Source of the DNA: Chiloscyllium plagiosum | Lineage: Eukaryota | Assembly (NCBI RefSeq): GCF_004010195.1 | Contig: NC_057722.1 | Span: 55,772,436-55,836,435, forward strand | Direction: 5' to 3' | DNA length: 64,000 nucleotides | Shown: piece after piece, positions 6,939 to 56,800 of the stretch | Position numbering within the stretch: position 1 is the first letter of the stretch | Layout of the letters: the number at the start of each line of letters is the position of its first letter | The notes under the pieces: model-generated | What the model was told of the DNA's origin: nothing | Database searches by the model: none | Seen by the model: the letters and a program-made list of their open reading frames with translations, nothing else | Made by a program: the position numbers and the translations under genes

Positions 6939-7031
6939 TGAAAATGTGTTGCTGGAAAAGCGCAGCAGGTCAGGCAGCATCCAGGGAACAGGAGAATCGA
7001 TGTTTCGGGCATAAGCCTTTCTTCTTTCTCC
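6939..7031 (-). mobile_element. Short Penelope-type terminal-repeat fragment with 16-bp TSD
   Basis: TATTAGAAATGATAGT is duplicated at 6923-6938 and 7032-7047. The insert matches the 43386-43576 family and carries a truncated hammerhead core on the - strand. Confidence 0.75.
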
Positions 7032-15130: not shown

Positions 15131-16074
15131 TGTTGTGGTTCTGTTCGCCAAGCTGGGAATTTGTGTTGCAGACGTTTCGTACCCTGTCTGGGTGACATCC
15201 TCAGTGCTTGGGAGCCTCCTGTGAAGCACTTCTGTGATCGTTCCTCCGGCATTTGTAGTGGTTTGAATCTGCCGCTTCCGGTTGTCAGTTCCAGTGTCCG
15301 TTGCAGTGGTCGGTATATTGGTCCAGATCGATGTGCTTATTGATTGAATCTGTGGATTAATGCCATGCCTCTAGGAATTCCCTGGCTGTCCTCTGTTTGG
15401 CTTGTCCTATAATAGTAGTGTTGTCCCAGTCGAATTCATGTTGCTTGTCATCTGCGTGTGTGGCTACTCAGGATAGCTGGTCGTGTCGTTTCGTGGCTAG
15501 TTGGTGTTCATGGATGCGGATCGTTAGCTGTCTTCCAGTTTGTCCTATGTAGTGTTTTGTACAGTCCTTGCATGGGATGTATACAAAATCCCATGCAAGG
15601 ACTGTACAAAACACTACATAGGACAAACAGGAAGACAGCTAATGATCCGCATCCATGAACACCAACTAGCCACGAAACGACACGACCAGCTATCCTGAGT
15701 AGCCACACACGCAGATGACAAGCAACATGAATTCGACTGGGACAACACTACTATTATAGGACAAGCCAAACAAAGAACAGCCAGGGAATTCCTAGAGGCA
15801 TGGCATTCATCCACAGATTCAATCAATAAGCACATCGATCTGGACCAATATACCGACCACTGCAACGGACACTGGAACTGACAACCGGAAGCGGCAGATT
15901 CAAACCACTACAAATACCGGAGGAAACAACACAGAAGCGCTTCACAGGAGGCTCCCAAGCACTGAGGATGTCACCTAGACAGGAGACGAAACGTCTGCAA
16001 CACAAATTCCCAACTCGGTGAACAGAACCACAACAACGAGCACCCGAGCTACAAATCTTCTCCCAAACTTTGAA
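15131..16074. mobile_element. Penelope-like element, fold-back (inverted) insertion 1
   Basis: 448-bp arms (15131-15578 and 15588-16035) around a 9-nt spacer. The + arm encodes [33 protein letters not shown]-like TAATACAGGGT/TAATGCAGGGT. Confidence 0.92.
15959..15998 (+). ncRNA. Minimal type-I hammerhead ribozyme motif in Penelope terminal repeat (mirror copy at about 15168-15207 on -)
   Basis: gca-CTGAGGA-t-gtcacc-tagaca-ggagac-GAAAC-GTC-tgc: conserved core, imperfect stem II and a short stem I. Confidence 0.65.
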
Positions 16075-19418: not shown

Positions 19419-22400
19419 GTACAGTTACTCGTTTAAGAAAATCTATTTCAATTTCTTACTAAAATTATACTACACGTTTTTTAAAACAACAGGTCAATGA
19501 AGTTTAATCAGTGAGTGACCCAAGTTGTTGTACTGTATTAGTCCAATTTGCAGAGGCCTTGAGCCAATGAGAATGTCACTGTAAAAGTAAAGTGCTCCCC
19601 AAACCACCTTTATTTTATGTGATGGACCTTTGGTACTTTTTAGATGGATGTATTTGTTGCCATTGCAACTTCAAGGATGCACTCAGTGCCCATACAGTCA
19701 GTGTCTGACGTCACTGACAATGGGACTGCTGGAAATAGCTTGCATCAAAGAATAGGATAAATAAAAGAATTCAATTTTGCATGTTTTCAGCTAATTTAAT
19801 GTACATCTGGGTTCATGGATATTCACACTGTCCCACCCACAGCATTTGATTGCATCACTCCCAAATCTATGCTGCCCCATTCTGTTATGGTTTTCTGTTC
19901 ATCACAAATGAGGGAGCAGGGTGGCCAGTGGTGAGGTGGTGGGGGGGGGTCAAATCAATGATTGGAGTGCTGAGTGGTGTGATAAATTACAGTGGCATAT
20001 GGAAATCAGAAATGCATGCAGAAACAGCAAGTGTGATGTGACCAGGTATGGTTGGGTGTACAACCGTTAGTGGCACAGCGCATATGCCTGGGGTGGATTG
20101 GGTGTTGATTTCTGGTCCCTGACATGTATCAGTAGCATCAATGTTTCATACTTCCTCTTGCACTTCTGTGGCAGTTTGTTATTTATTTGAGTCTGAGCCA
20201 GCTGGTTTCACTTCACTGCAGTTGGATGAACTATATGCATGGTTAATTTATAGCGGGTTTTGGGAAGATTTGAAGCTCAGGTTAAGGTTCTGGATGTAAG
20301 TTTGCTCCTTGAGCTGGAAGGTTTGTTTTTAGGCGTTTTCATCACCATACTAGATAACATTATCAGTGAGCTCCGGTGAAGCACTGGTGTTACGTCCTGC
20401 TTTCTGTTTGTGTTTAGGTTTCCTTGGGCTGGTGATGTAATTTCCTGTTCTTTTGTTCAGAGGGTGGTAGATGGTCCAATTTGATGTGTTTGTTGATAGA
20501 GTTCTGGTTGGAATGCTATGCTTCTGGGAATTCTCAGGTGTATCTATGTTTAGCTTGTCCTAGGATGGATGTGTTCTTCCAGTCGAAGTGGTGTCCTTCC
20601 TCATTTGTATGTAAGGGTACTAGTGAGAGTGGGTCACGTCTTTTTGTGGCTAGTTGATGTTCATGTATCCTGGTGGATAGTTTTCTGCCTGTTTGTCCAA
20701 TGTAGTGTTTTTTGTCTTTGTAGAGAGTCTTTTATGTTCATTAGCTGCTGTTTTAGTGTGTTGGTGGGTTTGTGGGCTACCATGATGCCAAGAGGTCTGA
20801 GTAATCTGGCACTCATTTCTGAAATGTCTTTGATGGAGGGGAGAGTGACTAGGGTTTCTGGGTACGTTTTGTCTGCTTGTTTGGGTTTGTTGCTGAGAAA
20901 TTGGCAGATAGTATGCTTTATTTTTGAATACGCTGTATAGGTGATTTTCCTCTGCTCTTTGTAGTTCCTCTATGTTGCAGTGTGTGGTGGTTCATTGAAA
21001 TCATGTCCTAATGCAGCTGCGTTTGTGCGTGTGTTGGGACACTTGTTTCTGTACTTCAATATTTGGTCCTTTTGTGTGGTTTTCCTGTAGATGCTGGTTT
21101 GGACTTCCTCGTTGAATGTTTACCCTACTATGACATCTAGGAATGGCAGTTTGTTGTTGTTCTCCTCTTTTGTGAATTTTATGCCAGAAGGGACATTATT
21201 GATGGTCTTGAAGGTTTCTGCTAATTTGTTTCATTTAGTGATGACGGGGTGCCATCCATGTAGCGGACCCAAAGTTTGGGTTGGATGGCTGGCAGAGTTG
21301 ATTGGTCGAGTCTCTGCATTACTGCCTCTGCTGTGGATGTGGATGACTCCTTTGTCATCACTAAACGAAACAAATTAGTGGATTATTATTATTATATTAT
21401 ATTAGCATATTATTGATGGTCCAGAGGCAGTAATGCAGAGACTCTAACAATCAGCTCTGCCAACCATCCAACTCAAACTTTGGGTCCACTACGCGGATGT
21501 GGATGACACCTTTTGTCATGATAAACAAAACAAAGTCGCAGATACCTTCAAGACCATCAATAATATCCTTACTGGCATAAAATTCACAAAAGAGGAGGAG
21601 AACAACAACAAACTGCCATTCCTAGGTGTAACAGTAGAGCAAACAGTCATTGGGGAACTTCAAACCAGTGTCTACAGGAAAAACACGCAAACGGACCAAA
21701 TACTGAACTGCACAAGCAATCATCCCAACACCCACAAACGAAGCTGCATTAGAGCATTACTTTAACGAGCCGCCCACACACTGCAGCACAGAGGAAAATC
21801 ACCTATACAGTGTATTGAAAAATAACTGGTACTGTCTGCCAATTTCTCCACAAACCCAAACAAGCAGACAAAACGTGTCCAGAAACCCTAGCCACTGTCC
21901 ACTACATCAAACACATCTCAGAAATGAGTGCCAGACTACTCAGACCTCTTGGCATCATGGTAGCCCACAAACCCACCAACACACAAAACAGCAGCTAATG
22001 AACTTGAAAAATCCTATACAGATAACGAGCAAAATGAATGTCATCTACAAAATAACTTGCAAGAACTGTAACAAACACTACATTGGACAAACAGGCAGAA
22101 AACTATCTACCAGGATACATGAACATCAACTAGCCACTATAAGATGTGACCCACTATCACTAGTATCTTTGGATACAGATGAGGAAGGACACCACTTCAA
22201 CTGGGACAACACATCCTTCAGAGATACACATGAAAATTCCTAGAAGCATGGCATTCCAACTGGAACTCTTATCAACAAACACATCAAATTGGACCCCATC
22301 TACCAATGAAAAGAATAGGAAATGACATCACCATCCCAAGGAAATCTAAATACATAACTAGAAAGCAGGACATAATACCAGCATTTCACTGGAGACTCAC

Positions 22401-25400: not shown

Positions 25401-28400
25401 TCTTTTGTTAGTAATATTTTTCCCTTTCCATGTATTTTCCGTTTTTACCTTATCTCGTCAACTTGCCTTGCAGACATGCTTTTTTGCTTGTTTTATTTCA
25501 ACATTGATTTCAAATAACCTCCCTTTCCAGACCCTCCAATTCTCTTGCATTCTTCTGATTGACTCTTCCTTCCATTTACCAACTGGATTCATTCTTCCCA
25601 TCGACCAACCAGGTCATTCACCTATCCCTACCTTAACACCCCCCCCCCCGATTTTTTTTCTCTCGCGCTCTCTCTCTCGCTCGCTCTTTCTCGCGCTCTC
25701 TCTCGCACAAACACACACACACACACCCAACCCCTTTATCTGCAGTTCCCCTAATACCCACCCCCAGTCCTGAAGAAGAGCTACATCTGAAACGTTGACT
25801 TCTCCACCTCCTGATGCTGCCTGGCTTACTGTGTTCTTCCAGCCTCCTACTTGTTTACCTTGTTTTATGTCAATAGCTAGATTTTGTGCAAAATACTCAA
25901 AGTAGTAATGGACTGTTTTATTGGAATAGCTATATTCTGCATAAAGAAAAAGAAAATCACCTGTTCAGTTAAGATTTGCCTGAGATCATATGGCTCTCAT
26001 TCTGTTATGTGCAACTGTTATATTAACTGATAATATATCTTATGATGAGAAAAGAGAACTCATTTACATCACACAAGCATTTGTTGTCTATCTTAATTGT
26101 CCTTGAACTGAGAGGCAGTTGAGAGTAAATCACATTGGAATCACATGTAGACTTTCCTCTTTAAAGACCATTAGTACATCAAGTGGGTTTTTATAATAAT
26201 TGATAAGATCATTACTGAAACTAGCTTTTAATTCCATGTATACTGGTGAATGTATATTACAGCAACCATGGAGGGATTAACCTGGATATCTGGATTGCTA
26301 GTCTAGTGATAATGTCTCCCTCTTGTAAAGTATGGCATGATTTACAGTTGCATCCCCGCCCTAACCTCTAAGCACAACAACTAAGTGCAGATGAAAAGTT
26401 GAGTTCTATTTGGCTGTGATTTTGTCCACCGTGAAACAACCTGGCATCATTTATGATCCAGACTCCCACTTGTGTGAGATTATTGTAAGACTTCTGGTAC
26501 CGGTGCGACTAAATCTTGGTGACATTTGGTGCTTTCAAGAAAGAAAAGATGATGTGGTTTTGAAAGAAAGACCCACTTTTTTAACGTATCCTTCATGCCA
26601 GTCTAGCAAATGACTGTTCTTTGTACTGCTGTTATGGATATCTTTTAAATGCTCTGCTCATTCCAGATATGGTCTTATTCAGTACAAAAGCAAAGTTAAA
26701 ATGTATCTTGTGTGTTCTGGGTGTTTCAGGAAAACCTTTATCCGGATGGAAATACGGAAGTATCAGAAAGCGCAGGTGAACAAGCCAGAACCCAGTTTCC
26801 AAGTAGTTTACAACAAGCACGTTTTGACTTTGGATGACCTGGCTACACTATATGGAGAGAATTGGCTAAACGATCAGGTCAGAGAAGGGTCCAGCTATGC
26901 TCGAGATGTTTGTCTCTGATAGATCGTTGCAAGGGTCACATGTATTTCAGAAAAGTGACAGCTACAGTGCTTTAATGCTGCAGTGATGTTGGAGTGTAAG
27001 CCGAGAAATGCGAGCTCTAAAGTAAAGTTTCAATAATCTTAGTCCTGCTTCTTGCAGACATTCTGTTCCATTATCTCAGTTCCTCCATCTGTCATATCTG
27101 TCCAATGATGTCACCACCACTATCCCACCAAGAATTAATCTCCTTTTTCCTTAATGAAACTTTCCGCCTCCCTCAGCTGTCAGAACCCTCAACCTGTCTG
27201 ACCCATCTCCTGCAATTTTACCTTCACCCATCTCATTTCCTCCCCACACAGTGGTTGGGTTTCCCTTTTCCTCACTGGCTACCCACCTTCCCTTATTCAA
27301 AAGATCATTCTCTGTCATTTCTACACCCTCCAGCAAGATACTGCCACCAAATGCATCGTCTCCTCCCCTCTAGTATCAGCATTCTATTGGACTGTTCCTT
27401 GTCCAGTTCTCCATCTGTCCTAACATGTGCTCAAACACTACTGGCTCAAAGGCTTCTTCACAGAGGTCATGATTTGGAGGTAACAGTTGTGGACTGGGAT
27501 GGACAAAGTTAAAAATCACACAACACCAGGTTATAATCCAGCAGATCTATGTGGAAGCACTTCATTAGGTGATGAAGGAGCAGCGCTTTGAAAGCTAATG
27601 CTTCCAAATAAACTTGTTGGACGATAACCTGGTGTTGTGTGATGATTAACTTCACAGAGGTGTGACACTTATCCAGTCACCACCTCTCTCTCCACTCTCC
27701 CAAGGCTGCAGGCACATATTGCAGGTGAAGCAGTGCTTTGTCTGCTCTTTCAATCTATTCTACTGGATTTGCTGCTCACAATGCTGTCTCCTTTACATTG
27801 GTGAGACCAAACAAGGACTGGGTGATCACTTTGTGGAACAACTTTGCTATGTCTGGAAGAATAACCCAGAAATTGCTTGCCATTTCAAAAAGTGCCTTGC
27901 TACCATACTAGCATTTCCATCCTGGGCCTACTATAATGTTACATTGAAGCTCAGCAAGAGCCAGGAGGAACAGCACCTCATTTTCCACTTGGGTACTTAC
28001 ACTCTCCAGGACTCTGTTCCACAACTTCAAAGCATGGCACTTGTCTTCCATGAATTTCCACCTCATCCCCCTGTTAAAATCCTCAGAGGCCATGAATTGT
28101 TGACTTCATTTTCACAAGGGTGAGTCCTTGTCTCCTTTTTCGCACCTTCATTTACACCCTTTTTACATCCTTTTTTTTCTTTACCACCATGAGCACTGTT
28201 TTTTTAACTCTGTCGGAAGTCACATGACTCCAGGTTATAGTCCAACAGACTTCTTTTAAATCACAAGCTTTCGGACTGCTGCTCCTTTGTCAGGTGAAAT
28301 CAACTTGTCACACTCCTGGTGTCACGTGACTTCTAATTTTGTCCACCCCTGTCCAACACTGGCCCCTCCACATTATAGCTTTTATGCTCTGGACATCCTC

Positions 28401-37400: not shown

Positions 37401-40400
37401 CTGTCTATTTTTAAGAATTTTGTAAATGTCTATGCAATTGCCCCTTATTCTTATGAACTTCAGAGAATATGGGCCCAGTCTCCTCATAGGACAGTCCAAC
37501 CATTCGATACATTCCCTCAATTACAATTACAGTATATCCTTCCTTGGGCAAGGAACCAGAAGTGTACATAACAATCCAGGTACAGTCTCAGCAATATTCT
37601 ATACAATTAAAGCAAGACTTCTTTCCTATTGTACTGAAATCCTGTTTAATGAAAGCTAACATGTTTGCTTTCTGAATTGCTTGCTGCACCTGCATATTAG
37701 CTTTCAATGACTTATGAACAAGGACACCTAGATCCTTTTGGGCATCTCCACTTCAAATCTTTCGCCATTTAAAAAGTAATCTTTACCTGAATGTAGATTT
37801 GCTAGCTGAGCTGTAAGGTTCTTTTTCAGACGTTTTGTCACCATACTAGGTAACATCTTCAGTGAGCCTCTGGAAAAAGCACTGCTGATGTTTCCTGCTT
37901 TCTATTTATATGTTTGGGTTTATTTAGGTTGGTGTTGTCATTTCCTGTTCTTTTTCTCAGGGGGTGGTAAATGGGGTCCAAGTCAATGTTTTTGTTGATA
38001 GAGTTCCGGTTGGCATGCCATGCTTCTAGGAATTCTCGTGCGTGTCTCTGTTTAGCTTGTCCTAGGATGGATGTGTTGTCCCAGTCGAAGTGGTGTCCTT
38101 CTTCATCTGTATGTAAGGATACTAGTGAGAGAGGGTCATGTTGTTTTGTGGCTAGTTGGTGTTCATGCATCCTGATGGCTAGTTTTCTGCCTGTTTGTTA
38201 CAGTTCTTGCACTGTATTTTGTAAATGACATTAGTTTTGCTTGTTGTCTGTATAGGGTCTTTCAAGTTCATTAGCTGTTGTTTGAGTGTGTTGGTGGGCT
38301 ACCATGATGCCAAGGGGTCTGACTAGAGTTGCAGTCATTTCCAAGATGTCTTTGATGTACAGGAGAGTGGCTAGGGTTTCTGGGCGTGTTTGTTGCTGAG
38401 AAATCGGCGGACTGTGTTCATTTGGTACCCATTCTTTTTTAATACACTGTTTAAGTATTCCTATACAGTGTATTCAAAAAGACAGGTACCCAATGAACAC
38501 AGTCTGCAGATTTCTCAGCAACAAACCCAAACAAGCAGACAACAAACACATTGACTTAGACTCCATTTGCTACCCCCTGAGAAAAAAAACAGGAAATGAC
38601 ATCAACCCAAAGATATGATTAGAAAGCAGGAACTATCAGCAGTGCTTTGTCCATGGGCTCACTGAAGTTGTTACCTAGTATGGTGACAAAACGTCTGAAA
38701 ACGAACCTTCCAGCTCAGCGAGCAAACCTACATCCAGAATCTCAACCTGAGCTACAAATCTTTTCAAAACGTGCTAGTACTCTTTACCTTTGATAGAAGA
38801 CACAAAGTGGATAACTGCTCACCATTTACATTATTTTCTATCTGCCATGCTCCAACCTCCTCATTCAGCCTACCTAAATCACCTTCAACCCTCTTTGTAT
38901 GCCCCTCACAACTTGCCATCTACCAAGTTTTATATCACCTGAAGACTTGGAAACATTACAATTGGCTTCCACATCCAGATTTTTGATACTGATTGTGAAA
39001 AGCTGAGGCCAAGCAATGATCCTTGCATTACCCCACTGGTCATAGCCTGCTGACCTAAGAATGACCCATTTATTCCTGCTGTCTGCTTTCTGCCTGTTAT
39101 CTAATCCTTAATCCATGCTTGTAAAATACACATAAGCAAAATTAAAGTGCATAGGATTACTAATCTTGTGAGGGTCTTTATGAAAAGTATTCTGAAGATG
39201 AAAATGGACCAATCCACTAGGCTCCCCCATGTCCACCCTGGTGACATATTCAAAAAAATTGGATCAGTTTGTCAATTTGTTAAATCAGTTTGTTTTCCCC
39301 TCTCATAAATCCATATTGACTCTGCCCAATCAGACAATTATATTCTAAATATACTGTGTCACATCCTTTATAATAAATTCTAATTTCAAATTTCTTGGTC
39401 CTCTTTGCCTTCTAGAATTCTCCCAGTTTTCAGGCTTAAACTTTTTCTAATCTTTTTTAAGCTTCTTCCTTTGATCTAATACTACCTTTAACTTCCCACG
39501 TCAATCATGACACTCTCTTGTTTTTCCTGATGGACATTTTAACTAACTGCTGACCATCTTCCAAGAATCCTTAGATTCTGGAAATATTCCCAAGGACTGG
39601 AAAACTGCCAATGTTGCAACTTTATTTATGAAGGGAAGGCGATGAGAACCAGGTAACTATAGACCAGTTATGTCTGTTTTAGGGAAAATGTTAGAGTGAT
39701 ATGTTAACAGCATTTAGAAATACATAATAGGATCAAACAGAAGGGACATGGCTTCATGAAGGGAAAAATTATGCCAAACAAATTGATTAGAATTCTTTTG
39801 AGGAAATAACAAACAGGATAAAGGGGAAGCAGTGGATGTAAAGTATTTGAATTTTCAGAAAGTGTTTGATCAAGCACTGCATATTAGGATATTTAATATG
39901 ATAAGATCCCATGGTGTTGGAGATATATTAACATGGCTAGAGGATTGACTAGTTAATAAACAGTTGGAATAAAGGAGGTATTTCTCGGATCACAACTTTA
40001 TGGAGTGCTAGAGGGATTGGTGCTGGAGCCACTATTATTTACAAGTTACATTAATGACTAATGAAAAAAGTAAATGTATTGTAGCCAAGTTGGCAAATAA
40101 CACACACAATCTGCAAAAGGACGCAGACAGGTTAAGTGAGTAGGCAAAACAATCAGTAGGTGGAATATAATATGAGAAGATATGACATTATGTAATTTGG
40201 CAGGAAGAATAGAGAAAATTAATATGATTTAAAAGGAGAGAGACTGCAGAAATCTACAGCACAGGGGGATTTGGAAGTCCCCGTTCATAATCACAAAAAG
40301 CTAGAATCCTTGAGAAGGCTTACTAAAACTATACAGGGCATTAGTTGGACAACAGCTACAATTTTGGGTGTCTTTCAAAGAAAAGATATTTTGGTATTAG

Positions 40401-43400
40401 AGACACTCTAGAGATTCACTAAGCTGATCTTGGGTATCTTTAGATAAGATTAGATTCCCTACAGTATGGAAACAGGCCCTTCAGCCCAACAAGTCCACAC
40501 CAACCCTCCGAAGGGTTACCAACCCAAACCCATTCCCCTACCCTATACTTACGCCTGACTAACGCACTTAACACTATGGGCGATTTAGCATGGCCAATTC
40601 ACCTGACCTGCACGTCTTTGGATTGTGGGAGGAAACCAGAACACCCAGAGGAAACCCACGCAGACGCAAGGTGAATGTGCCAACTCCACGCAGACAGTCG
40701 CCAGCGGCGGGAATTGAACCCTGGTGCTTGAGGCAACACTGCTAACCACTGAGCCATTGTGCTGCCCCTGATGAAGGATTGATTAATGAGAAATTGAGTG
40801 GATTGGGTCTGTACTTAATGGAATTTGTGAAAATGAGAGGCAACCTTATTGAGATGTACAAGATTCTTATTGGTTTTGATGTGATGGATGCAGAACGAAT
40901 ATTTCCCCTTGTGGGAGAATCTAGGCCCAGGGATATAATCTGTTATGAAGGTGTGGAGGTACTGTCCTGTTAAAGTCCAGATTTGAGACGACCCAGGGAA
41001 TCCCTTGTGGACTCAGACCTGTAAGCCTCTCTTGGTTCGTCCCAGAGATCGTACTCTTTGGTAGTCTGGAATAAAAGCCTCTTACAGTTTAGTTTAATTT
41101 TAGTCATCCCCTTTATTTACTAATAGCATCACTGTTACAACATAACACTGATACCTATAAGCCAAACTAACTAGGTTCTCATAATCCAGGAGAGTAAGAT
41201 ATCAGCTGTTTAAGAGCCCTGGCAGGCTACTCTGCTATACTGACACAATGGCTATCAAAGTGGCTTCCTTTATACAAAAAGCTTGAAAAATACTGCATGT
41301 TCTTAATTAGATGGATAACAGTGAAAGACAATAATTTGTAAGGAAGAGAAATTAATTGACAGGTCTGTGTGTGCTTGACTGATCGCTCCTACAGGTCCTG
41401 AGCCATTCATCAGGAGGGAAAAACAAATCCAGCCGAGTTAGGCGTCTGCTGGCGAGATAAGTTCCTATCATACAGAGGTACCAGTCTGAGCTAGTTGCAA
41501 GAGTTCATAAGGTACCCTTGCACAGCTTGCGCAATGGATGCAATTGTTAGGTTTAGAATAATTTTTAAGCTCGGAGCAGATTCCTGCTTTTGATTTAGGC
41601 ACCGAATCATTCTGTACCTGAGGCGGAGATGTTACCATAAGGTTGCATTTAAACTGATTCATTAGTCTTGAATTAAACATGCGTTCTTTTCAGGGTTGTG
41701 ATTCAAAATCAAATAATACATAAGATCTGACTAGTTAGAGTTGACAGTGGAGCAGTCTATANNNNNNNNNNNNNNNNNNNNNNNNNNNNNNNNNNNNNNN
41801 NNNNNNNNNNNNNNNNNNNNNNNNNNNNNNNNNNNNNNNNNNNNNNNNNNNNNNNNNNNNNNNNNNNNNNNNNNNNNNNNNNNNNNNNNNNNNNNNNNNN
41901 NNNNNNNNNNNNNNNNNNNNNNNNNNNNNNNNNNNNNNNNNNNNNNNNNNNNNNNNNNNNNNNNNNNNNNNNNNNNNNNNNNNNNNNNNNNGAATAAAGA
42001 TACAGATGAAGAGGAATTTTATCTGAAGGTGATGTCGATTCTGTAGAATTTATTACCACAAACAGCTGTCAAGGCTACGTTGTTAAATATATTCAAATAT
42101 ATATGTGATAGATTTTTTTTTAATTAAAAGGGTTATGGAGAAAAGGCAGGGAAAATGATGTTGAGGATCATCAATTCAGTCATGAACTCACTAAATGGCC
42201 GCACAGACCTGAGCTGAATAGCCAATTTCTGTTCCCACATCCTATAATCTTAATGGAATGTTTTGTTTTGAAAACTAAGCATTAATTCTTTAAATTGCGT
42301 ATCAACCGTCAAACCGTTGTATTTTTCAAATTCAACACAGCTAACTTCTTCCTCGTGCCTTCATTGTTGCCTTTCAATTGAAGATCCTTATTTCACATTG
42401 AACTATATCTTTTTCAAGCTTAATGGAAAATTCTACCATATATCAATATTATTAATTAGCCCTTTCACATTGCTGATTACTAGATCTACAGTAATCTTTC
42501 CCTAGTTAGTATTCCTCAGTGTTGAGAAACCATGTCCAATACATTCCATGAATTCTTCCTCCATATCATTGGTTTTCATTAGAATTACCCAGTCTGTATG
42601 TAGGTTGAAGTCATCCATTCCCTTGCTACATGCAAACACCTAATTTTCTGATTTGTACTGTGCCCTTTTTCTGTTTTAAATTACAATTTAAATTCTCATT
42701 CCAAGGTTTATTTGCTCATATAAAACTGTAACCAATGAGGCAAAAAGAGAAGGGCTTGCAGTAACTCAGGAAACGTTATTTCAGTTATGAATAATACTAT
42801 GGGCATACTATGGCTGTTGCTTTCCAGTTCAACTTGAGTGTAGGTTGGTACTTGGTCTTGGGTCTTCAGCTCCCAATTGGACAGCGGGTTAACTTTCATT
42901 TCAAACTTGGTGCGCAACTTTATTGCTAAAAGCTGCTGCTTATTAACTGTTTCCAGCCTGCAACAATCAATTGTTATTGCGTCCCAATTGTCCTAGGTGA
43001 AGTGAGAGTCTTTTCTAATTAGTTTAGATACAGTTAAGCAGAATATTGTAGTAATCAATGTACTTTGTGTAATAATAGCTAAATTAATTATGAAATGTTA
43101 ATTTCCCAACTAATCCTGCACGTACGTTGCCACTATGGTTTGCAGACTTATAAATCTCTTTGACCAACACTTGCTGCCCCTTGCTGTTCTTTAGCTCCAT
43201 CAAACAGATTCTACACCTTTTACTTCCTTTTAGGCCACTCCTCCAAAATGCAAATATCCCATAATAATCAGTCCCTCTTGAACACTCTGTAGCTAATGTA
43301 ATAATACCCCTTAACATGTAGCGCCATGAATTCACTGATCATCCAATGTGTGCAAATGGTGGTAATGGTTGTTGAGGTCAATCATAGGAGAAAGTGCGGA

Positions 43401-46400
43401 CTGCAGATGCTGGAGATCAGAGCTGAAAAATGTGTTGCTGGAAAAGCGCAGCAGGTCCGGCAGCATCAAAGCAGGAGAATCGAAGTTCCTGAAGAAGGGC
43501 TTATGCCCGAAACATCAATTCTCCTGCTCCTTTGATGCTGCTTGACCTGCTGCACTTTTCCAGCAACACATTTTTCAGGTCAATCATCATAGCCCTAGGA
43601 TATCATTACAGAATGTCACTATCTGTAGCTGTCACTCTGCATATGCAGCACTACTCGGACAACATCCAGGTTTGGGCTGATAAATGGCAAGTAACATTCA
43701 TGCTGCACAGCAGCCAGGTAATTACATTCTCCAACAAGAGAGAACCTAACCTTCAGCCTTGACATCACTGGCATTAGTCATTGAATTGACATCACAGAGA
43801 TTGCCATATATCAAACACTGATCTGTACCAGCTTTTCCACATTCAGTTACAGCTTTTCTTCTTCTCATAACTGGCTTTTCTATCTGAAATCCTTCTTAAA
43901 TTTCTGTTGCCCTGAGAAACTGGTTTAAGCCCATCAGCAAAAGTACTAATACAAGTCTCTAGGAGGATATTAGTCCCAGTCCTGATAAAGTAATCCTCAT
44001 TGTACAGGTTCTACCTGCCTCAGAACAGACTCAGTCCCCAGAATTCTAAAGTCCTTTCTCCTGCACCACTCCACCCAACATTTACTCAAGTTTTTTACTT
44101 CTATGCTGGCTAGCATTTAGTACTGAGAGCAATCCTGAGGTCTTGGTTTTCTGTCTTTTGCTTAGCTCCCTAAATTTTAACAAAAAATTTTAATTTCAGG
44201 ACTTTATCCCTCTTTCTGCCTATGTCATTGGTGCAAAGGTACAGCACAATCTCTGGCTTATCTCCCTTCCCCAAAAGAAAATCCTGCAGCTACACTATGA
44301 CATACCAGACCCTGGCATCAGGGCAGTGATGTACCATTCTGTAGACATGTCTACAGCCACTAAACAGCCTGTCTGGTCCCCAACTGTAAAGTTATCCAGC
44401 ATTCTTCTTCCTCCACTCACACCTGTGTGCCTCAGCTATTTGCAGTGCCAAAAGCTTGTCTTCCACTGCATTATTCTTATGAGTTATTGCCATCATCAGT
44501 ATCCAAAATGGAAAATCAGTTCGTGAGTGAGAGAGATTCAGGACTTTTGCCCTGCCTCTGTGGTCTTTCTAGACTGCCTGGAAATCATGCATTCCCCCTC
44601 TGCTTAATCTACAGTATGACCACTTGATTAAACATACTATCCACATGGTTCACAGCTATGTGGGAGTGGCATAGTGACTTCAGTGCCACTCAAGTTCTGA
44701 GCCCAGAGTTCAAGATTTTGCAGATGGACAATTCCTTCCACATGAAGAATCCACAACTTCCCACGTAGCACAGCACAGTATTCCACACAGCTGAACTGTC
44801 CTGCTATGCCTGAAAGTGTACTTTCAGACTTTTTACCTTCATCCGAAATTGAAAGCAAAAAATAAAATTACTCTGCAATCCAGTCCAATGAATATAAGCT
44901 CTTCGCAAACAGATACTTCTCACCCTAGCTTATGGCTTTGCTGTGATGTCAGTCTTTTGATTTTTTTTCAAACCTGGTATTTTAGAAGACACTCGAAGCA
45001 TCCCTCTGCATACTCTCTCAGGTAAGTGTATGCCTTAATCCAATGCTTTGTCCCCTGTGCATTTCCTTGCAGTTATGTCCTGTGCAGGCTCGCCCAGTGC
45101 TGTGTGCTCTTTGCATTTCCTTGCCAGTATGCTGACTACTGTCTCTCCCAGGTAAGGAATGGACCTGACCCCTGTGCTCTGTTCATATATCTCTGCCCCG
45201 GTGTGTTTAATTGCAGGTCTGCTGTTTCTCCCAAGTAAAGGTGGGCCACAAGTCCCACCCACTGTCCATATTCTCTCTATTCCTGGTGCATTTCTTCGCA
45301 GGCTTATGCTCTGCTTTCTCCCCAAGCTAAGTTGAGGGTTATTAAAGCAAAATACATTTAAAATGACTAAGTTAGTAAATGAACTACTAATATATTGTAA
45401 TTAATGTCTGTGTTATTCTCTCCCATAGTGTATTCCTCAACAGAAAAATGATAGTGACTGTGGTGTGTTCGTTCTTCAGGTATGGTAATTTCCCGTTTTC
45501 TTTTAGGATTTGGTTGTGAAAAGTGGTTGCGAAGCAAGATCACTCGTAAAATGTTCAAAACCATGTGAAGGCTAAGAATGGTTCCAAGCTAGCAAGGATT
45601 GAAACCGCTTTATAAAAGCAGAAAAGTCACAAATGGATTATCCAGGATCATGGGGAGAAGAATTTTCTCTTCGTTTTTCAATACATATGTAGGGATTTCA
45701 AATGAACTTTTAAAAAAAAAGTATGAGGTTTGAAATGGCTACTAGTCCAAATAAAACTGTAACCCAGAAATGGTTACCACCTTCACTGGAAGCAAAGTGG
45801 ATAAACCTTTCATTTATATATTGCCATGTCAAAGCTCTGATAAATCTCAACACTTCACTCACAGTATTTCATTTGAAGTGCTTTTATTAGAGAAGCAGTT
45901 GAGAGAGTCTAAAATTAATAAATTGCAGGCTAAGTTAATGCTACAAAATTGATTGTGCAGCTTTGTTACATTAAAAAATGTCTTAATGCTGTTTTGTGGT
46001 CAAAATAATGGGGAAGCCGCAGTTGTTTTAAAATCAGATATTGCTGAAACAAAATGTTGAAAATATAAGCATCTGAAAGGATCTGTTTTGAAATATTGCA
46101 AAGCTATCTGTCTTATTTTCAGATGCAACAGGTCTGCATGATGTTTATACTAATTAACATAAAACAGTTGGTTATTTTTTTTTTCCCATGCAAGCATGGA
46201 AACCTGGACTCAATCTATCCTTTGTAACTTTGAAGCCATAGTTTGATGCCAAAGGATCACCATAGTTCTGAAATAGGAAGATATTACTGTAATCCTACTA
46301 TAATATATGCTTCCATAAACCATAAATTTATAGCTTTTAAAATCTATTTCAACTTCACTTCTTATAGCACCATCTTAAAAGGTACATTATTGTAAATTAG

Positions 46401-48901
46401 TTAGAATCTCAACACTTTGACACGATTTTCTGGAAAGAGTTGTTTAAATATTACTGTTTCTCTCCAGTATTTCTGTTTGCTGTGAAACAACATTAAGTAA
46501 TATTTGATTTGTCTTTTTTCTAATCTTTATTGTTAAAGAGCAGAGTCAGATATTTGACCTAGTTACATCCCTGAAGTGACCAAGTAACGAAAAGCATTCA
46601 GGCTATTGTTGAGATTGCCAAGACAACTAAAATATCACGAGAAACTGGTCATGCGAAACAAGTGGCTTCAGTGAAAGACCAGAGAATTTACCTTTAATTT
46701 CAACCTTCTGTAGCAAACCTGACTTGTGTTGATTGTGTTATTGATAGCAGGTAGCTGTCAGGCTGCATTGTGGTGAATCAGTTTTGAGGATCTTAGCCAT
46801 AGATCAGGAACTGCTTAGAATTGATTTGCCTTTCTAGATTCATGAGGTTGTTATTAGAGCTTTTAATTTGGGGGAAATAATCTTCAAGAAAGACTGAAGT
46901 ACAAACTTGTGTTGGCCTGCCTGGAACATCTAAGCTTGTGGAAATAGCTAGTTTTGAGAAGATTTGTAACTCAGATGGAGGTTTTGGAAGTAGGTTTGCT
47001 CGCTGAGCTGGGAGGTTCATTTTCAGAAGTTTCGTCACCATACTGTGTAACATCATCAGTGAGCCTCCAGATGAAGCACTGGTGGTATGGCCTGCTTTCT
47101 ATTTCTGTTTAGGTTTCATTAGGTTGGTGATGTCATTTCCTGTTCTTTTTCTCAGGGGTGGTAAATAGGATCCAAGTCAATTTGTTGATGAGAGTTCCAG
47201 TTGGAATGCCAAGCTTCTAGGAATTCTCGAGTGTGTCTCTATTTGGCTTGGTATCCTTCCTCATCTGTATGTAAGGATACTAGTGAGAGTGGGTCATGGC
47301 TTTTTGTGGCTAGTTTTCTGCCTGTTTGTCCAATGTAGTGTTAGTTACAGTTCTTGTAAGATATTTTGTAAATGACATTAGTTTTGCTTGTTGTCTGTAT
47401 AGGGTCTTTCAAATTCATTAGCTGCTGTTTTAGTGTGTTGGTGGGTTTGTGAGCTACCATGATGCCAAGGGGTCTGAGTAGTCTGGCAGTCATTTCTGAG
47501 ATGTCTTTGTAGGAGGCGAGTGGCTAGGGTTTCTGGACGTGTTTTCTCTGCTTGTTTGTGTTTGTTACTAAGAAATCGGCGGACTGTGTTCATTGGGTAC
47601 TCATTCTTTTTGAATACACTGTATAGGTGTACAGGGGAACCTCGATTGTCCGAACGAAATGGACAGGCACTATTTCGTTCGGTTAATTGATTAAATGCCT
47701 TTCCTCTGGTGCTCGGAGTTTTTAAAGTCTGCTTCCGTTCAGGAAACAAAGCAGCTTACAGTGTGCGAGTCACCGCCCTCGCCCCCCCCACTCTCCAACC
47801 CCAACACTGCCCCTGAACCTTGTACACTCCTGCCCCCTCTCCGGGGCAGCCGGACTGGACACCAACAATAAGACTGCTTTTGTGGGGTAAGTCTCCAAAT
47901 AGCGTGCACATACAGCCACACACACAACTTTTTGAGGTTCCACATTTGCCCTCTACAGTGCAATGTTAGATTATCTGGGGAAGGGCAGGTTTAGGGTACA
48001 CCCCTCTGTAGAACTCCAGGTCAAGTGTGGGGAGAGAGGGAAAGCAGGAGGTCAGTCATTTCGAGACAGTGCCTGTTTAATCACTGTAAACAAAAGAGAT
48101 CACTGTTGGAAACTTGTCTTTGATGTAATGTTTCTATCGGGGGACCTTGAGATCTCCTTCGGATAATCCAATTTTCAGATAATTAGTATTCGGATAATCG
48201 AGTTTCCTCCATATACACATCCATCCACATACAAACCACTGGAAGTGACATCACCAATCCAAGGAAATCTAAACACACAAATAGAACGCAGGCCATACCA
48301 CCAGTGCTTCATCTGGAGGTTCACTGATGATGTTACCTAGTATGGTGATGAAACGTCTGAAAACAAACCTGCCACGTTCAAACGAGAATTAAGGCAATGT
48401 TCATTGTAATGAAATGAATAAATTGTTAAGGTTCATTGTAGACAGGTACACTAATGCGATGAGAATTTAACTACCCTGGCTAAAAGTACTAAACCTAAAT
48501 GGTACATCTCAGCTTGGATCATCAGCATAGCAGCATTGTGTGTCTCATAATTATGATTAAAGTCCCAAACCACTGCAGTGTAACTGCCATCAACATCTCT
48601 TCTATTGTTCCATGTTACAGAAGCAATTACAGGGACTTATTCCAGTAATCTAGTGAAAGTTCTGCCTTCAGCCATCACCAAAAAAGGAATTAGTTAATTT
48701 GTATTGTTGATCCCTTGTTTTTGGTGTGCACAACAAAGATGTCACATGATCTTCTGTACTATTTATACATTTGTTTCTGCAAATGTGCTCAGGGATTATA
48801 TAATTTTATTTTCCTGTCTTGGCTCCTCTGTTCTTTGTTGAATCAACATGTCAAATGCTGGTATGTTTTCTCATTTTCTACCAATATTTCCACTCTCCAA
48901 T

Positions 48902-53808: not shown

Positions 53809-56800
53809 CTGCAAAAAAAACACGTACAAAGGAAATAAAAATGTATTGTGTCCATGACCTTCTAATAGAATTCTCACATTATTGACTTGTATTAGAATAA
53901 AGACACTTGTTCACTAAAGAGTTCTTCTGTGCCCCAAGCTAATAAGCATGATTGTACACTCATTATTCAAATTCCCTTGGCATTTGGCTTCTGTAACTCC
54001 TGGTATGGACAACCGAAGTTGGTGACAATACCATACTGCATAGCAGTCAGCTAAATTTTAATCAATAGACAAGATAATATCAGTTCAGACCTCCATTTAA
54101 AAATATACCTAGGAGTTCTAAACATCCACTCACTTGGATTCAGTTTTGAATTCCATTATACTGATGTCTGTCAATGTATTATTTAGATTTTTATAAATAC
54201 TATAGCAAGTGACATTAGTTACAAAACAGTCTGGTTTCGTGAGGTGATTTCACCATACTGTTCAAAACAAAGGGCAATTAAAACTCATGAATTCAGCCAA
54301 ATAATTCTGTCCCACCCTTAATGAGCATAAGTAATACAAATGATTCAGATCATAAGTTGTTTTAGCACATCATGACAACTTAAAATCATCAACATGTGGC
54401 TATCTTTTAAAACAGTAAAGTTTTTCCAGTTACTTTGCAACGGTACTAAAATTCTCAATGAACCAAAGTACACCAGATAAAAATACACTTTGATCTTGTG
54501 TCTTTATTTAAAGTTTACAAGATGTGATTGCACGTACCATATTATAGAGAAACCACGTACCTGACCACCAGATTTGCCTCGTCCAAATTGCCTGCCTTCT
54601 TTGAAACCAGTATCCCAGTCTGTTCTGATGATCCGATCATCCAGGCGTGTTCCATTAATAAATCTCATGCATTGTTCAGCATCAGCTCGTGTGTAATATC
54701 TAATTAACGCATTAAGGATAAACCACCACTTAAAAACTAAACTGCAGAAGCTGGAGACTTGAAGCAAAAAAATGCAAAATATTGGGAGAAACTCAGGTGG
54801 TCAGGCTGCATCTGAAGAGAAAACCTAGTTAACATTTTGAAGGGTCACAGGACTCAATTCAACGTGATTTATAAAAGGGAAACCATATTTGAACAATTTA
54901 TTGGAGGTCCAATGGATGTATTTAAATTTCCAGTAGTCAGTTGATAAGGTGCTACATCAAAGGTTATTGCAGAAATAAAAGCTCATGGTGTAGGGGTAAC
55001 ATTGACATTCAGAAGATAGGCTGGCTAACCGGAAGCAGTAATGGGTAACTTTCTGGACATACAAGGATAGGAAAGTAAACTGAATTGTACTGGGGCAACA
55101 ATAGTGATATATAAGTGGGCAAAGAGCTGGCAAACAAAGCATGAGGTGGGAAAATGTGAAATTGTCTATTTTGTCAGGAAAAATAAAAAAAACACCAATC
55201 TGACAGGCAAGAGATTGCAGAATTGAGATGCAGAGGGATATGGCTATCTCAGTGTACAAAATCACTAGCTGTTAATATGCAGGTATAGCAAGTAATCAGA
55301 TAAGTTAATGGAATGTCATTGTTTATTTCAAGGAAATGTAACATATAAGTAGGAACTAATTCTTCAGTTACACTGGATATAAGTGAGACCACGTATAGTA
55401 TTGGTGTCCTTAATTAAGGAAGGACAAATGAGTTACGAGCAGTTTATTAGAGTAATACCTGGAATGGGTTGGTTTGTCTTATGAGGAATGGTTGGTTAGG
55501 CTACATGCTTACCCACTGGAGTTTAAAATCACAGCTTAATTGAAACAAGATCCTGAGGGATTTCAATAGGTTTACGTAGAAAGGATGTTTCCTCTTGTGA
55601 GGGAACAAGAACTCAAGGTCAAATTTCAAAATTACGGGCGTGCCCATCTAAAACAAATTAGCAGACTTGTTTTTCTCACAGAGGCACAAGTCCTTGGAAG
55701 TCTTCCTCAAAAAGAACATTACACACAGAGTCCTTCCAAGTTTTTAAGGCCAACAAAGATAGCAAGGTTATCAAGGGTGGGCAGAAACAATATGAAAGGC
55801 ACAAAATTCTTGAACCGCATTCATGGGAATGTTTTTAAACAGCATGCCCAACAAAGCGCAAGTCTTAGAAAATGAAGGTGGCAGCTAGTTGTAAAAGCAG
55901 TGGGTGACCACTTTGGAGATAGAGTTCTTAATAGGTAGATTTAGCATCATCATGGAAAGGGACAAAGATAGAACTTTTACAAAGCAGAGATGATCTGGCA
56001 AACGTGGACTGCATACATCTACCTGAAGGTAAGCCAGTGCAAATCAGTGGGGCAAAGTGAAAGAACAGAAGTCAAGAAATAGGAGCAGTAGAAGGCTGCT
56101 CAGCCCCTCTGCCATTCAATAGGATTATGGCTAATATGACCAAGGCCTCAACTCCTCTTCGTTGCCAGCTCCTCATAGTACTCAATCCCCCAAATTTTCA
56201 AAATAATTTATCACCTCTTTCAAAACTTGCAGTGATCTAGTTTACATTACTCCCCCTTAAAAATAAACCAATTCCACCAAATCTAGTCTCCTGGTTACCC
56301 AGGAGCAGAAAGAGAGGGCTTATGACAATCTCAAAGGAAGTTTAATTTTAGGAGGGTTGGAAGAGTTCAGAATGTACAGGGGTGAGGTTAAAAAATAAAG
56401 TTAGGAAAGCAAAGAGGATATTGAAAAAAAATTGGTTGCTAAAATTAAGGAAAATCCAAAAGGTATGTTATCAGTAGTTTGAGTAAAAGGATGACGAAGG
56501 AAAGGTTAGGGCCTATCAAAGATGTACATGGTAACTTGCGTATGAATGCAGAAGATGTGGAGAGGGGTCTACACAAGTACTTTGTCTCCATTCACGTAGG
56601 AGAGGAACGATCAGGCATTCTAATTAAAGAGAAGTGGTAAATAATAGAAAAAAATAAGCATGATGTGAAGGTCAGTACTAGAGGGACTGACCTACTTGAA
56701 GGTGGACAGATAACCAGAACCAGATGAATTTGATCCAAAGCAAATAAAAGGAAGGCAGGCAGCAAAAAGCAGGTGCTGAACAAATACTCACCAGACAGGT

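Follow-up and report, generated by a model that had tools for sequence, protein, structure and literature searches.

A mutated, hammerhead-bearing hairpin in the genome of the shark Chiloscyllium plagiosum as a Penelope-like terminal-repeat stub, and the end-point rules of its family

The window considered here, a stretch of 64,000 nucleotides from the genome of Chiloscyllium plagiosum (contig NC_057722.1, positions 55,772,436 to 55,836,435 of the forward strand), contains at 43375..43587 a short hairpin-forming unit with a hammerhead ribozyme motif, which an earlier note took for either an independently transposing, retrozyme-like retroelement or the minimal product of an inverted insertion of a Penelope-like element (PLE). 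The insert of 191 bp is enclosed by an exact 11-bp target-site duplication (TSD), AGGTCAATCAT, at 43375..43385 and 43577..43587 (both +), just as had been read; this duplication may at first have been about 13 bp long, the right copy having an extra CAT ahead of its AG. Inside it lie two head-to-head copies of a 130-nt repeat, numbered here so that +1 is the A of TCATTCC, which is conserved across subfamilies. The antisense arm (−) begins on the left with the Penelope 'tail' (43386..43419), which corresponds to about +97..+130 of the repeat and is found on this arm only, and continues over 43420..43487 to an inner end at about +26/+27, lacking CUGANGA and stem II of the hammerhead and, by comparison with the other arm, having lost 3 nt by deletion. 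At the centre junction (43486..43487) a 2-nt TT microhomology is common to both arms, and the untailed sense arm (43486..43578, +) extends from +2 to about +93, sharing its final AG with the right TSD. On this arm lies a minimal type-I hammerhead (43489..43516, +), with CUGAAGA at 43489-95, an extra A at 43496, stem II at 43497-500/43505-508, GAAA at 43509-12 and C17 at 43516, so that the reported core CTGAAGA-A-GGGC-TTAT-GCCC-GAAAC-ATC is indeed present. We consider the unit, with high confidence, to be a PLE stub, that is, a mutated and TSD-flanked insertion of two head-to-head terminal repeats of such an element.

The hairpin itself is real, its predicted minimum free energy being −119 kcal/mol with a z-score of −13.6 and none of 200 shuffles being as stable. 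The inverted arms, previously given as about 60 bp, measure 58 nt at 90% complementarity (43420-43477 with 43524-43581), and a second pair of 18 nt (43470-43487 with 43511-43528) is shifted by the 3-nt deletion. The structure is nevertheless lopsided, since the 34 nt of the tail at 43386-43419 remain without a pairing partner, an asymmetry that the earlier note overlooked. The placing of the hammerhead core in the hairpin loop likewise holds in part only, for in the predicted fold the GAAAC-ATC half and the 3' strand of stem I are occupied by the antisense arm, with unpaired probabilities of 0.18 at position 15.1, 0.05 at 15.2, 0.04 at 16.1 and 0.02 at 17. Moreover, where intact sister copies read GAAACGTCG the window copy reads GAAACATCA, and the two mutations, G16.2>A (43514) and G1.1>A (43517), are consistent with CpG decay. 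With 16.2 and 1.1 mutated and the core not free to fold, the hammerhead of the window copy is predicted to be both inactive and masked in the hairpin. A scan with the Rfam models returned no hammerhead match for the window unit at E<=10, and yielded chance hairpins of the miRNA type only.

What links the unit to Penelope is the company that its repeat keeps elsewhere in the genome. In locus L042 a reverse transcriptase domain (RVT_1, E 2.6e-8) lies upstream of the same 130-nt repeat, and in L055 a GIY-YIG endonuclease domain (PF01541, E 4.6e-5, over the cut-off) lies just upstream of it, preceded by a C-x4-C-x2-C linker that is also present in L054 and L074; a sequence search of the PDB with the reverse transcriptase piece gave no match. 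A genome search with sequence upstream of the repeat found copies at 99-100% identity. Conversely, a query with the start of the open reading frame (ORF) identified 29 loci, in most of which the tail continues into a common ORF-start sequence, where the likely ATG of the ORF follows the tail after about 37 nt (L127). The repeat is found downstream of the endonuclease and upstream of the ORF start in separate partial copies, and its presence on both flanks of an ORF for reverse transcriptase and GIY-YIG endonuclease identifies it as the pseudo-long terminal repeat (pLTR) of an endonuclease-positive (EN+) PLE. By its CX2-5CxxC linker this parent element would be Neptune/Nematis-like. The 5' pLTRs ahead of the ORF begin at 0/+1 in L112 and L127, while others reach further upstream, as tandem transcripts would. 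L053, finally, contains an untailed inverted arm, reverse transcriptase motifs in a remnant and a tailed arm; read on the minus strand, the window unit shows this same layout in a shorter form. It was thus the second option of the earlier note, the minimal product of an inverted Penelope insertion, that was supported.

A genome search with the window insert gave 1980 first-look candidates, of which 40 were scored. The rules obeyed by the family were obtained from a sample not chosen by element, consisting of 160 evenly spaced 10-kb pieces, each taken from a round coordinate on the large contigs C1-C29, in which 64,495 of 1,600,000 bases are N and 1.54 Mb are readable. It holds 264 repeat clusters, 101 of them young in the sense of being at least 88% identical to one of nine natural reference copies. 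These 101 comprise 41 short head-to-head units, 27 short single-arm copies, 19 long copies, 13 clusters dropped on account of an inner end at N or at the locus edge, and one other. Extrapolated to 3.56 Gb, this would roughly amount to 6x10^5 clusters and 10^5 young hairpins.

The outer ends of the arms are bimodal, 47/143 falling at +92..+100 and 65/143 at +125..+131, with none at +105..+118. In the 41 head-to-head pairs one tail is present in 38, none in three and two in no case, and tail-to-tail pairs do not occur. The inner ends meet a wall at +1: among 67 arms reaching +5, 46 stop at −3..+5, and only three of the remaining 21 stop within the next 75 nt. The wall does not depend on inversion, because single-arm copies show the same start; a TSD is detectable in 14 of 37 such copies, and eight of these 14 start at 0..+5 within 4 nt of the TSD. 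The family thus traces to Penelope, as one of the counter-possibilities named in the earlier note supposed, but its end-points are sharply non-random instead of being scattered.

The centres of the hairpins are, by contrast with these fixed boundaries, highly variable. There are 35 distinct centres among the 41 units, with five types recurring two to three times each, and L046 and L191, which share the repeated 4/14 centre, differ in the arm that carries the tail. Among the 38 one-tailed units 19 centres are overlapping, 14 contain filler and five are near-blunt. TSDs are found in 26 of the 41 units, and in 17 of the 20 where both arms are at least 90% identical, against 1/100 in the control; those of the sister copies are mostly 14-16 bp, with junction microhomology counted in. 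Together with the one-tail rule and the lack of tandem head-to-tail arrays among the 264 clusters, in which the sole same-strand adjacent cluster proved to be one split monomer, the variable centres indicate that the hairpin is likely built anew at each insertion from two short cDNAs and not copied as a hairpin.

These same facts bear on the other option of the earlier note, according to which a retrozyme-like unit, comprising the entire 190-bp hairpin, is processed by its ribozyme and transposes alone. In its favour, many TSD-bounded units of like size exist and a few centres do recur, but an independently propagated hairpin should hardly exhibit so many different centres, nor opposite tail sides at one and the same centre. 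Furthermore, the ends lie at +1, about +95 and +130 and not at the cleavage site (+32/+33), which the fold-back is predicted to bury, and a search for ADAR scars in 81 units showed no clear one-strand A>G cluster, with three old units reaching five such changes among 21-24 substitutions. Of the 41 head-to-head units, 24 have no intact core on either arm, and of the 17 that retain one, a single unit has it on both arms. This option is therefore largely refuted, and we consider it very improbable.

We favour instead, as the probable explanation, a run-off mechanism in which two cDNAs are primed on both cut strands of the target. The strand cuts, priming, run-off and joining that we infer would proceed as follows. 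The endonuclease would cut the two target strands about 11-15 nt apart, and each 3' end would prime reverse transcription on the mRNA at one of two internal sites of its 5' pLTR, which lie at about +95 and +130. Having copied at most about 130 nt, both cDNAs would then run off the 5' end of the RNA at +1, where TCATTCC is initiator-like, and they would be linked by end-joining with trimming, microhomology or filler. A tiny or absent second cDNA would leave a single-arm copy. A second family copy in the window (6941-7031) consists of an untailed antisense arm with only a stub of about 7 nt of the tail end and a 16-bp TSD; it has two arms, of which the tailed one is minute. TCATTCC at +1 fits YYANWYY, which we take to be the initiator consensus. 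The tail ends of short copies match at least 4 nt of the ORF-start continuation in 7/51 cases (1.2% expected, p 2e-6), so that the templates of those copies must have continued into the ORF. In L112, L117 and L125 (near locus position 1560) the interior of the copy is deleted, so that approximately the first 70 nt of the ORF-start region are followed, to within a few bases, by a second pLTR at its 0/+1; these joins may represent a template jump following run-off at +1. Several of the proposed steps have biochemical counterparts: the PLE protein of the green anole, a predicted dimer, is able in vitro to cut the two target strands and to extend them, and its reverse transcription begins at two internal sites that delimit the tail, on a template of uncleaved RNA (PMC11167929).

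A fixed start and an abundance of short copies could also arise in another way. The 130-nt monomer, and not the hairpin, could be a non-autonomous element resembling a short interspersed element (SINE), that is, a solo pLTR which carries an internal promoter at +1 and both start sites for reverse transcription and is transcribed and re-inserted by the Penelope protein. Short copies do outnumber long ones (68 against 19 of the 101 young clusters), an internal promoter is described for the Drosophila virilis Penelope (PMC2377424), and a 2026 preprint argues for a derivation of animal retrozymes from pLTRs (bioRxiv 10.64898/2026.07.22.740005). The matches of tail overshoots to the parent ORF start are at odds with such a monomer, as is the occurrence of the tail haplotype nearest the window copy in six long copies as well (tail-selected loci); in the anole, moreover, the RNA needed for insertion extends beyond the start sites of reverse transcription (PMC11167929). 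No short-only subfamily was seen, in a sample too small to exclude one. On balance we think a SINE-like origin quite unlikely.

Another possibility is fold-back self-priming, whereby one cDNA or antisense template folds and is copied back on itself, with later deletions unbalancing the centres. Such copying has been suggested for the PLE palindromes of Adineta (PMC3846280), and would account both for arms that share subfamily and apparently private alleles and for centres that are near-symmetric at +1..+3. Yet in the 38 one-tailed units it is the tailed arm that stops farther from +1 in 23, the untailed arm in nine, and the two agree within 2 nt in six, which excludes a simple snap-back from the tailed arm. 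In 11 units the untailed arm extends inward to +5 or past it, whereas its tailed partner goes no further in than +10, and of the 16 youngest units seven are already asymmetric by at least 8 nt. The filler at 14 of the 38 centres and the occurrence of the same +1 wall in single-arm copies also speak against it, and self-priming, although it explains some of the data, appears to us unlikely.

The two-cDNA run-off mechanism has itself to face a number of contrary or ambiguous observations. A tail-selected set of 11 pairs contains, besides ten one-tailed pairs, a two-tailed one. The arms within a unit differ at only 16/199 subfamily sites, compared with 2534/5636 (45%) between units (first 31 pairs), and some of the shared alleles are apparently private (L142, L039); this fits a single RNA, but equally fold-back copying or homogenisation of the arms. 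The same allele sharing led us to reject a derivation of the arms from RNAs of different subfamilies, the apparent arm differences in L001-L030 being biased by the query. Older units have lost more of the centre (Spearman −0.36, p 0.026), a trend also compatible with self-priming, and some trimming may accordingly follow insertion and blur the evidence of the centres. In addition, the initiator reading of +1 leans on a consensus match, and +1 coincides with the 5' edge of stem I of the hammerhead, so that a stop of the reverse transcriptase at this structure could make the same wall. RNA data can be read both ways. In the run X19, a polyA single-cell library whose species may differ from that of the window, coverage rises about 3-4-fold at +1 on both strands, the sequence upstream being mixed, yet 93% of the reads continue into unlike sequence and there is no pile of read starts; run X20 yielded no aligned reads. 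The X19 pattern fits embedded genomic copies and maps no transcript start; neither start nor end piles indicative of monomer-length or circular RNA were found in this library, the type of which is ill-suited to reveal them. Lastly, the parent was pieced together from partial copies.

The hammerhead, in contrast to its state in the window copy, looks to have been selected in the parent lineage. A pattern for the minimal hammerhead gave 133 matches in the 1.6-Mb sample, belonging to several PLE-like families, against 1, 2 and 0 in three shuffles, and in these motifs the CUGANGA, GAAA and NUH core is conserved family-wide, with N7 and loop II variable. Across families the 15.2/16.2 pair is CG in 67, GC in 22, CA in 17 and TG in 16 of the 133. 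One stem II pair has changed from G-C to A-U on both sides in 2/9 rows of the window-unit family, the other three rows of the covariation alignment representing a second family misaligned by one column. Of the two features on which the earlier note would have its reading judged, core conservation is accordingly evident, while stem II covariation amounts to this one change. Stem I pairs +1..+4 with +33..+36, and has 4 bp in the GAAT subfamily but a predicted pairing of no more than 0.02 in the main one. In the short insertions, the hammerhead would be carried along from the pLTR and would be masked in the hairpin. A further abundant family (L160, L164, L177, L099, L085) has the core CTGATGA-A-GGAGC...GCTCC-GAAAGCTA, in which the palindrome is GC and not CG, and the NUH is UA.

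The question then is whether the ribozyme has left any trace in the end-points. Among 263 pooled arms seven terminate on the inner side at +33, immediately 3' to where the hammerhead would cut (+32/+33), where 1.2 are expected per position (P 2e-4, or 0.007 when corrected for 31 positions), and this pile is no more than a hint of hammerhead cleavage. At least three of the seven (L191, L256, L124) are explicable by microhomology or internal deletion, and a pile at +38 is likely due to a repeated TCCTG. One could go further and regard most copies of the family as 'strong-stop' run-off cDNAs of the 5' pLTR, paired by two-ended target priming, with the +33 pile as the in vivo footprint of hammerhead cleavage; we put this forward as a tentative proposal, with the chances rather against it.

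Other remains of this and related elements are scattered over the window and the sampled loci. The same pLTR has old relatives at 25768-25843 (+) and 54741-54812, which have diverged to about 70% identity, while decayed frames with GIY-YIG-like YIG(Q/E)T motifs at 21707-22240 (+) and 27650-28120 (+) are probably PLE remnants. Hammerhead-like cores of another repeat family, with CTGA.GA-T and a longer stem II, occur at 15204 (−) and 15962 (+), at 47059 (−) and 48324 (+), and at 37862 (−); the two opposite-strand pairs, 15204/15962 and 47059/48324, are spaced by about 0.8 and 1.3 kb and are likely larger inverted PLE insertions. Elsewhere, in L028 (1370-1950), a hairpin unit has inserted into a two-armed copy of the family that is older and longer than itself, a short way upstream of the +1 of that copy, and young long copies show internal tandem amplification of short pieces of the ORF, namely a 27-nt unit in L060 (about 1050-1500) and a C-terminal peptide repeat in L054.

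Much of this architecture has precedents. EN+ PLE insertions, such as those of Pen2a_Av, are likewise composed of head-to-head, inverted and 5'-truncated pLTRs with a tail of 30-40 nt at one end, a TSD and a hammerhead in the pLTR (PMC3846280; PMC8557442); here, in contrast, most insertions lack any ORF and the arm ends pile up at +1, and neither this wall nor counts of one-tailed units appear in the parts of those accounts consulted. Thus, the inverted pLTR, the one-sided tail and the TSD are already published, whereas the fixed start wall was not found in print. The C-x4-C-x2-C linker before the endonuclease in the window-unit family is a feature tied to Neptune/Nematis (PMC8557442). A close parallel is Poseidon_Ac of the green anole (PMC11167929), with two start sites of reverse transcription bounding the tail, in vitro cutting and extension of both strands, a pLTR hammerhead and an uncleaved template; the Poseidon_Ac ORF, however, starts inside the hammerhead, whereas here the likely ATG is about 37 nt after the tail. 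The minimal type-I hammerheads of metazoan PLEs (PMC4209133) share with those described here the extra nucleotide between 9 and 10.1, the G10.1-C11.1 pair, the palindromic 15.2-16.2 and the short stem I, and both close opposite-strand pairs and single motifs from truncated PLEs are on record there; in our family stem II has 4 bp, stem I 2-4 bp, and the window copy is mutated. Non-long-terminal-repeat retrozymes resemble the unit in being non-coding, in their type-I hammerhead and in their kinship to PLE pLTRs (PMC7229834; bioRxiv 10.64898/2026.07.22.740005). They are, however, head-to-tail tandem repeats processed by the hammerhead to monomeric or circular RNA (PMC7229834; bioRxiv 10.64898/2026.07.22.740005; PMC6155905), whereas the shark units lie scattered, singly or as head-to-head pairs, have TSDs at their borders and do not end where the hammerhead would cleave. 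In the literature searched, neither this family in sharks nor the +1 wall nor twin priming by PLEs was found described; the family may be listed in Repbase or Dfam, in subscription papers or in supplements, which lay outside this search.

Judged as a new mobile RNA, the window unit is thus ordinary, its layout being published and this copy being predicted dead. Its significance resides rather in the family to which it belongs, since neither the way in which PLEs complete an insertion nor the role of their hammerheads is settled, and roughly 10^5 two-armed stubs in a single genome (41 in 1.54 Mb, extrapolated) constitute a large fossil record with sharp rules. The end-point rules, namely two start sites, one tail and the +1 wall, lead directly to predictions for the PLE assay already established in vitro. 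If the +33 pile does reflect cleavage, it would be the genomic trace of in vivo hammerhead activity which the anole study did not detect by RNA-seq (PMC11167929).

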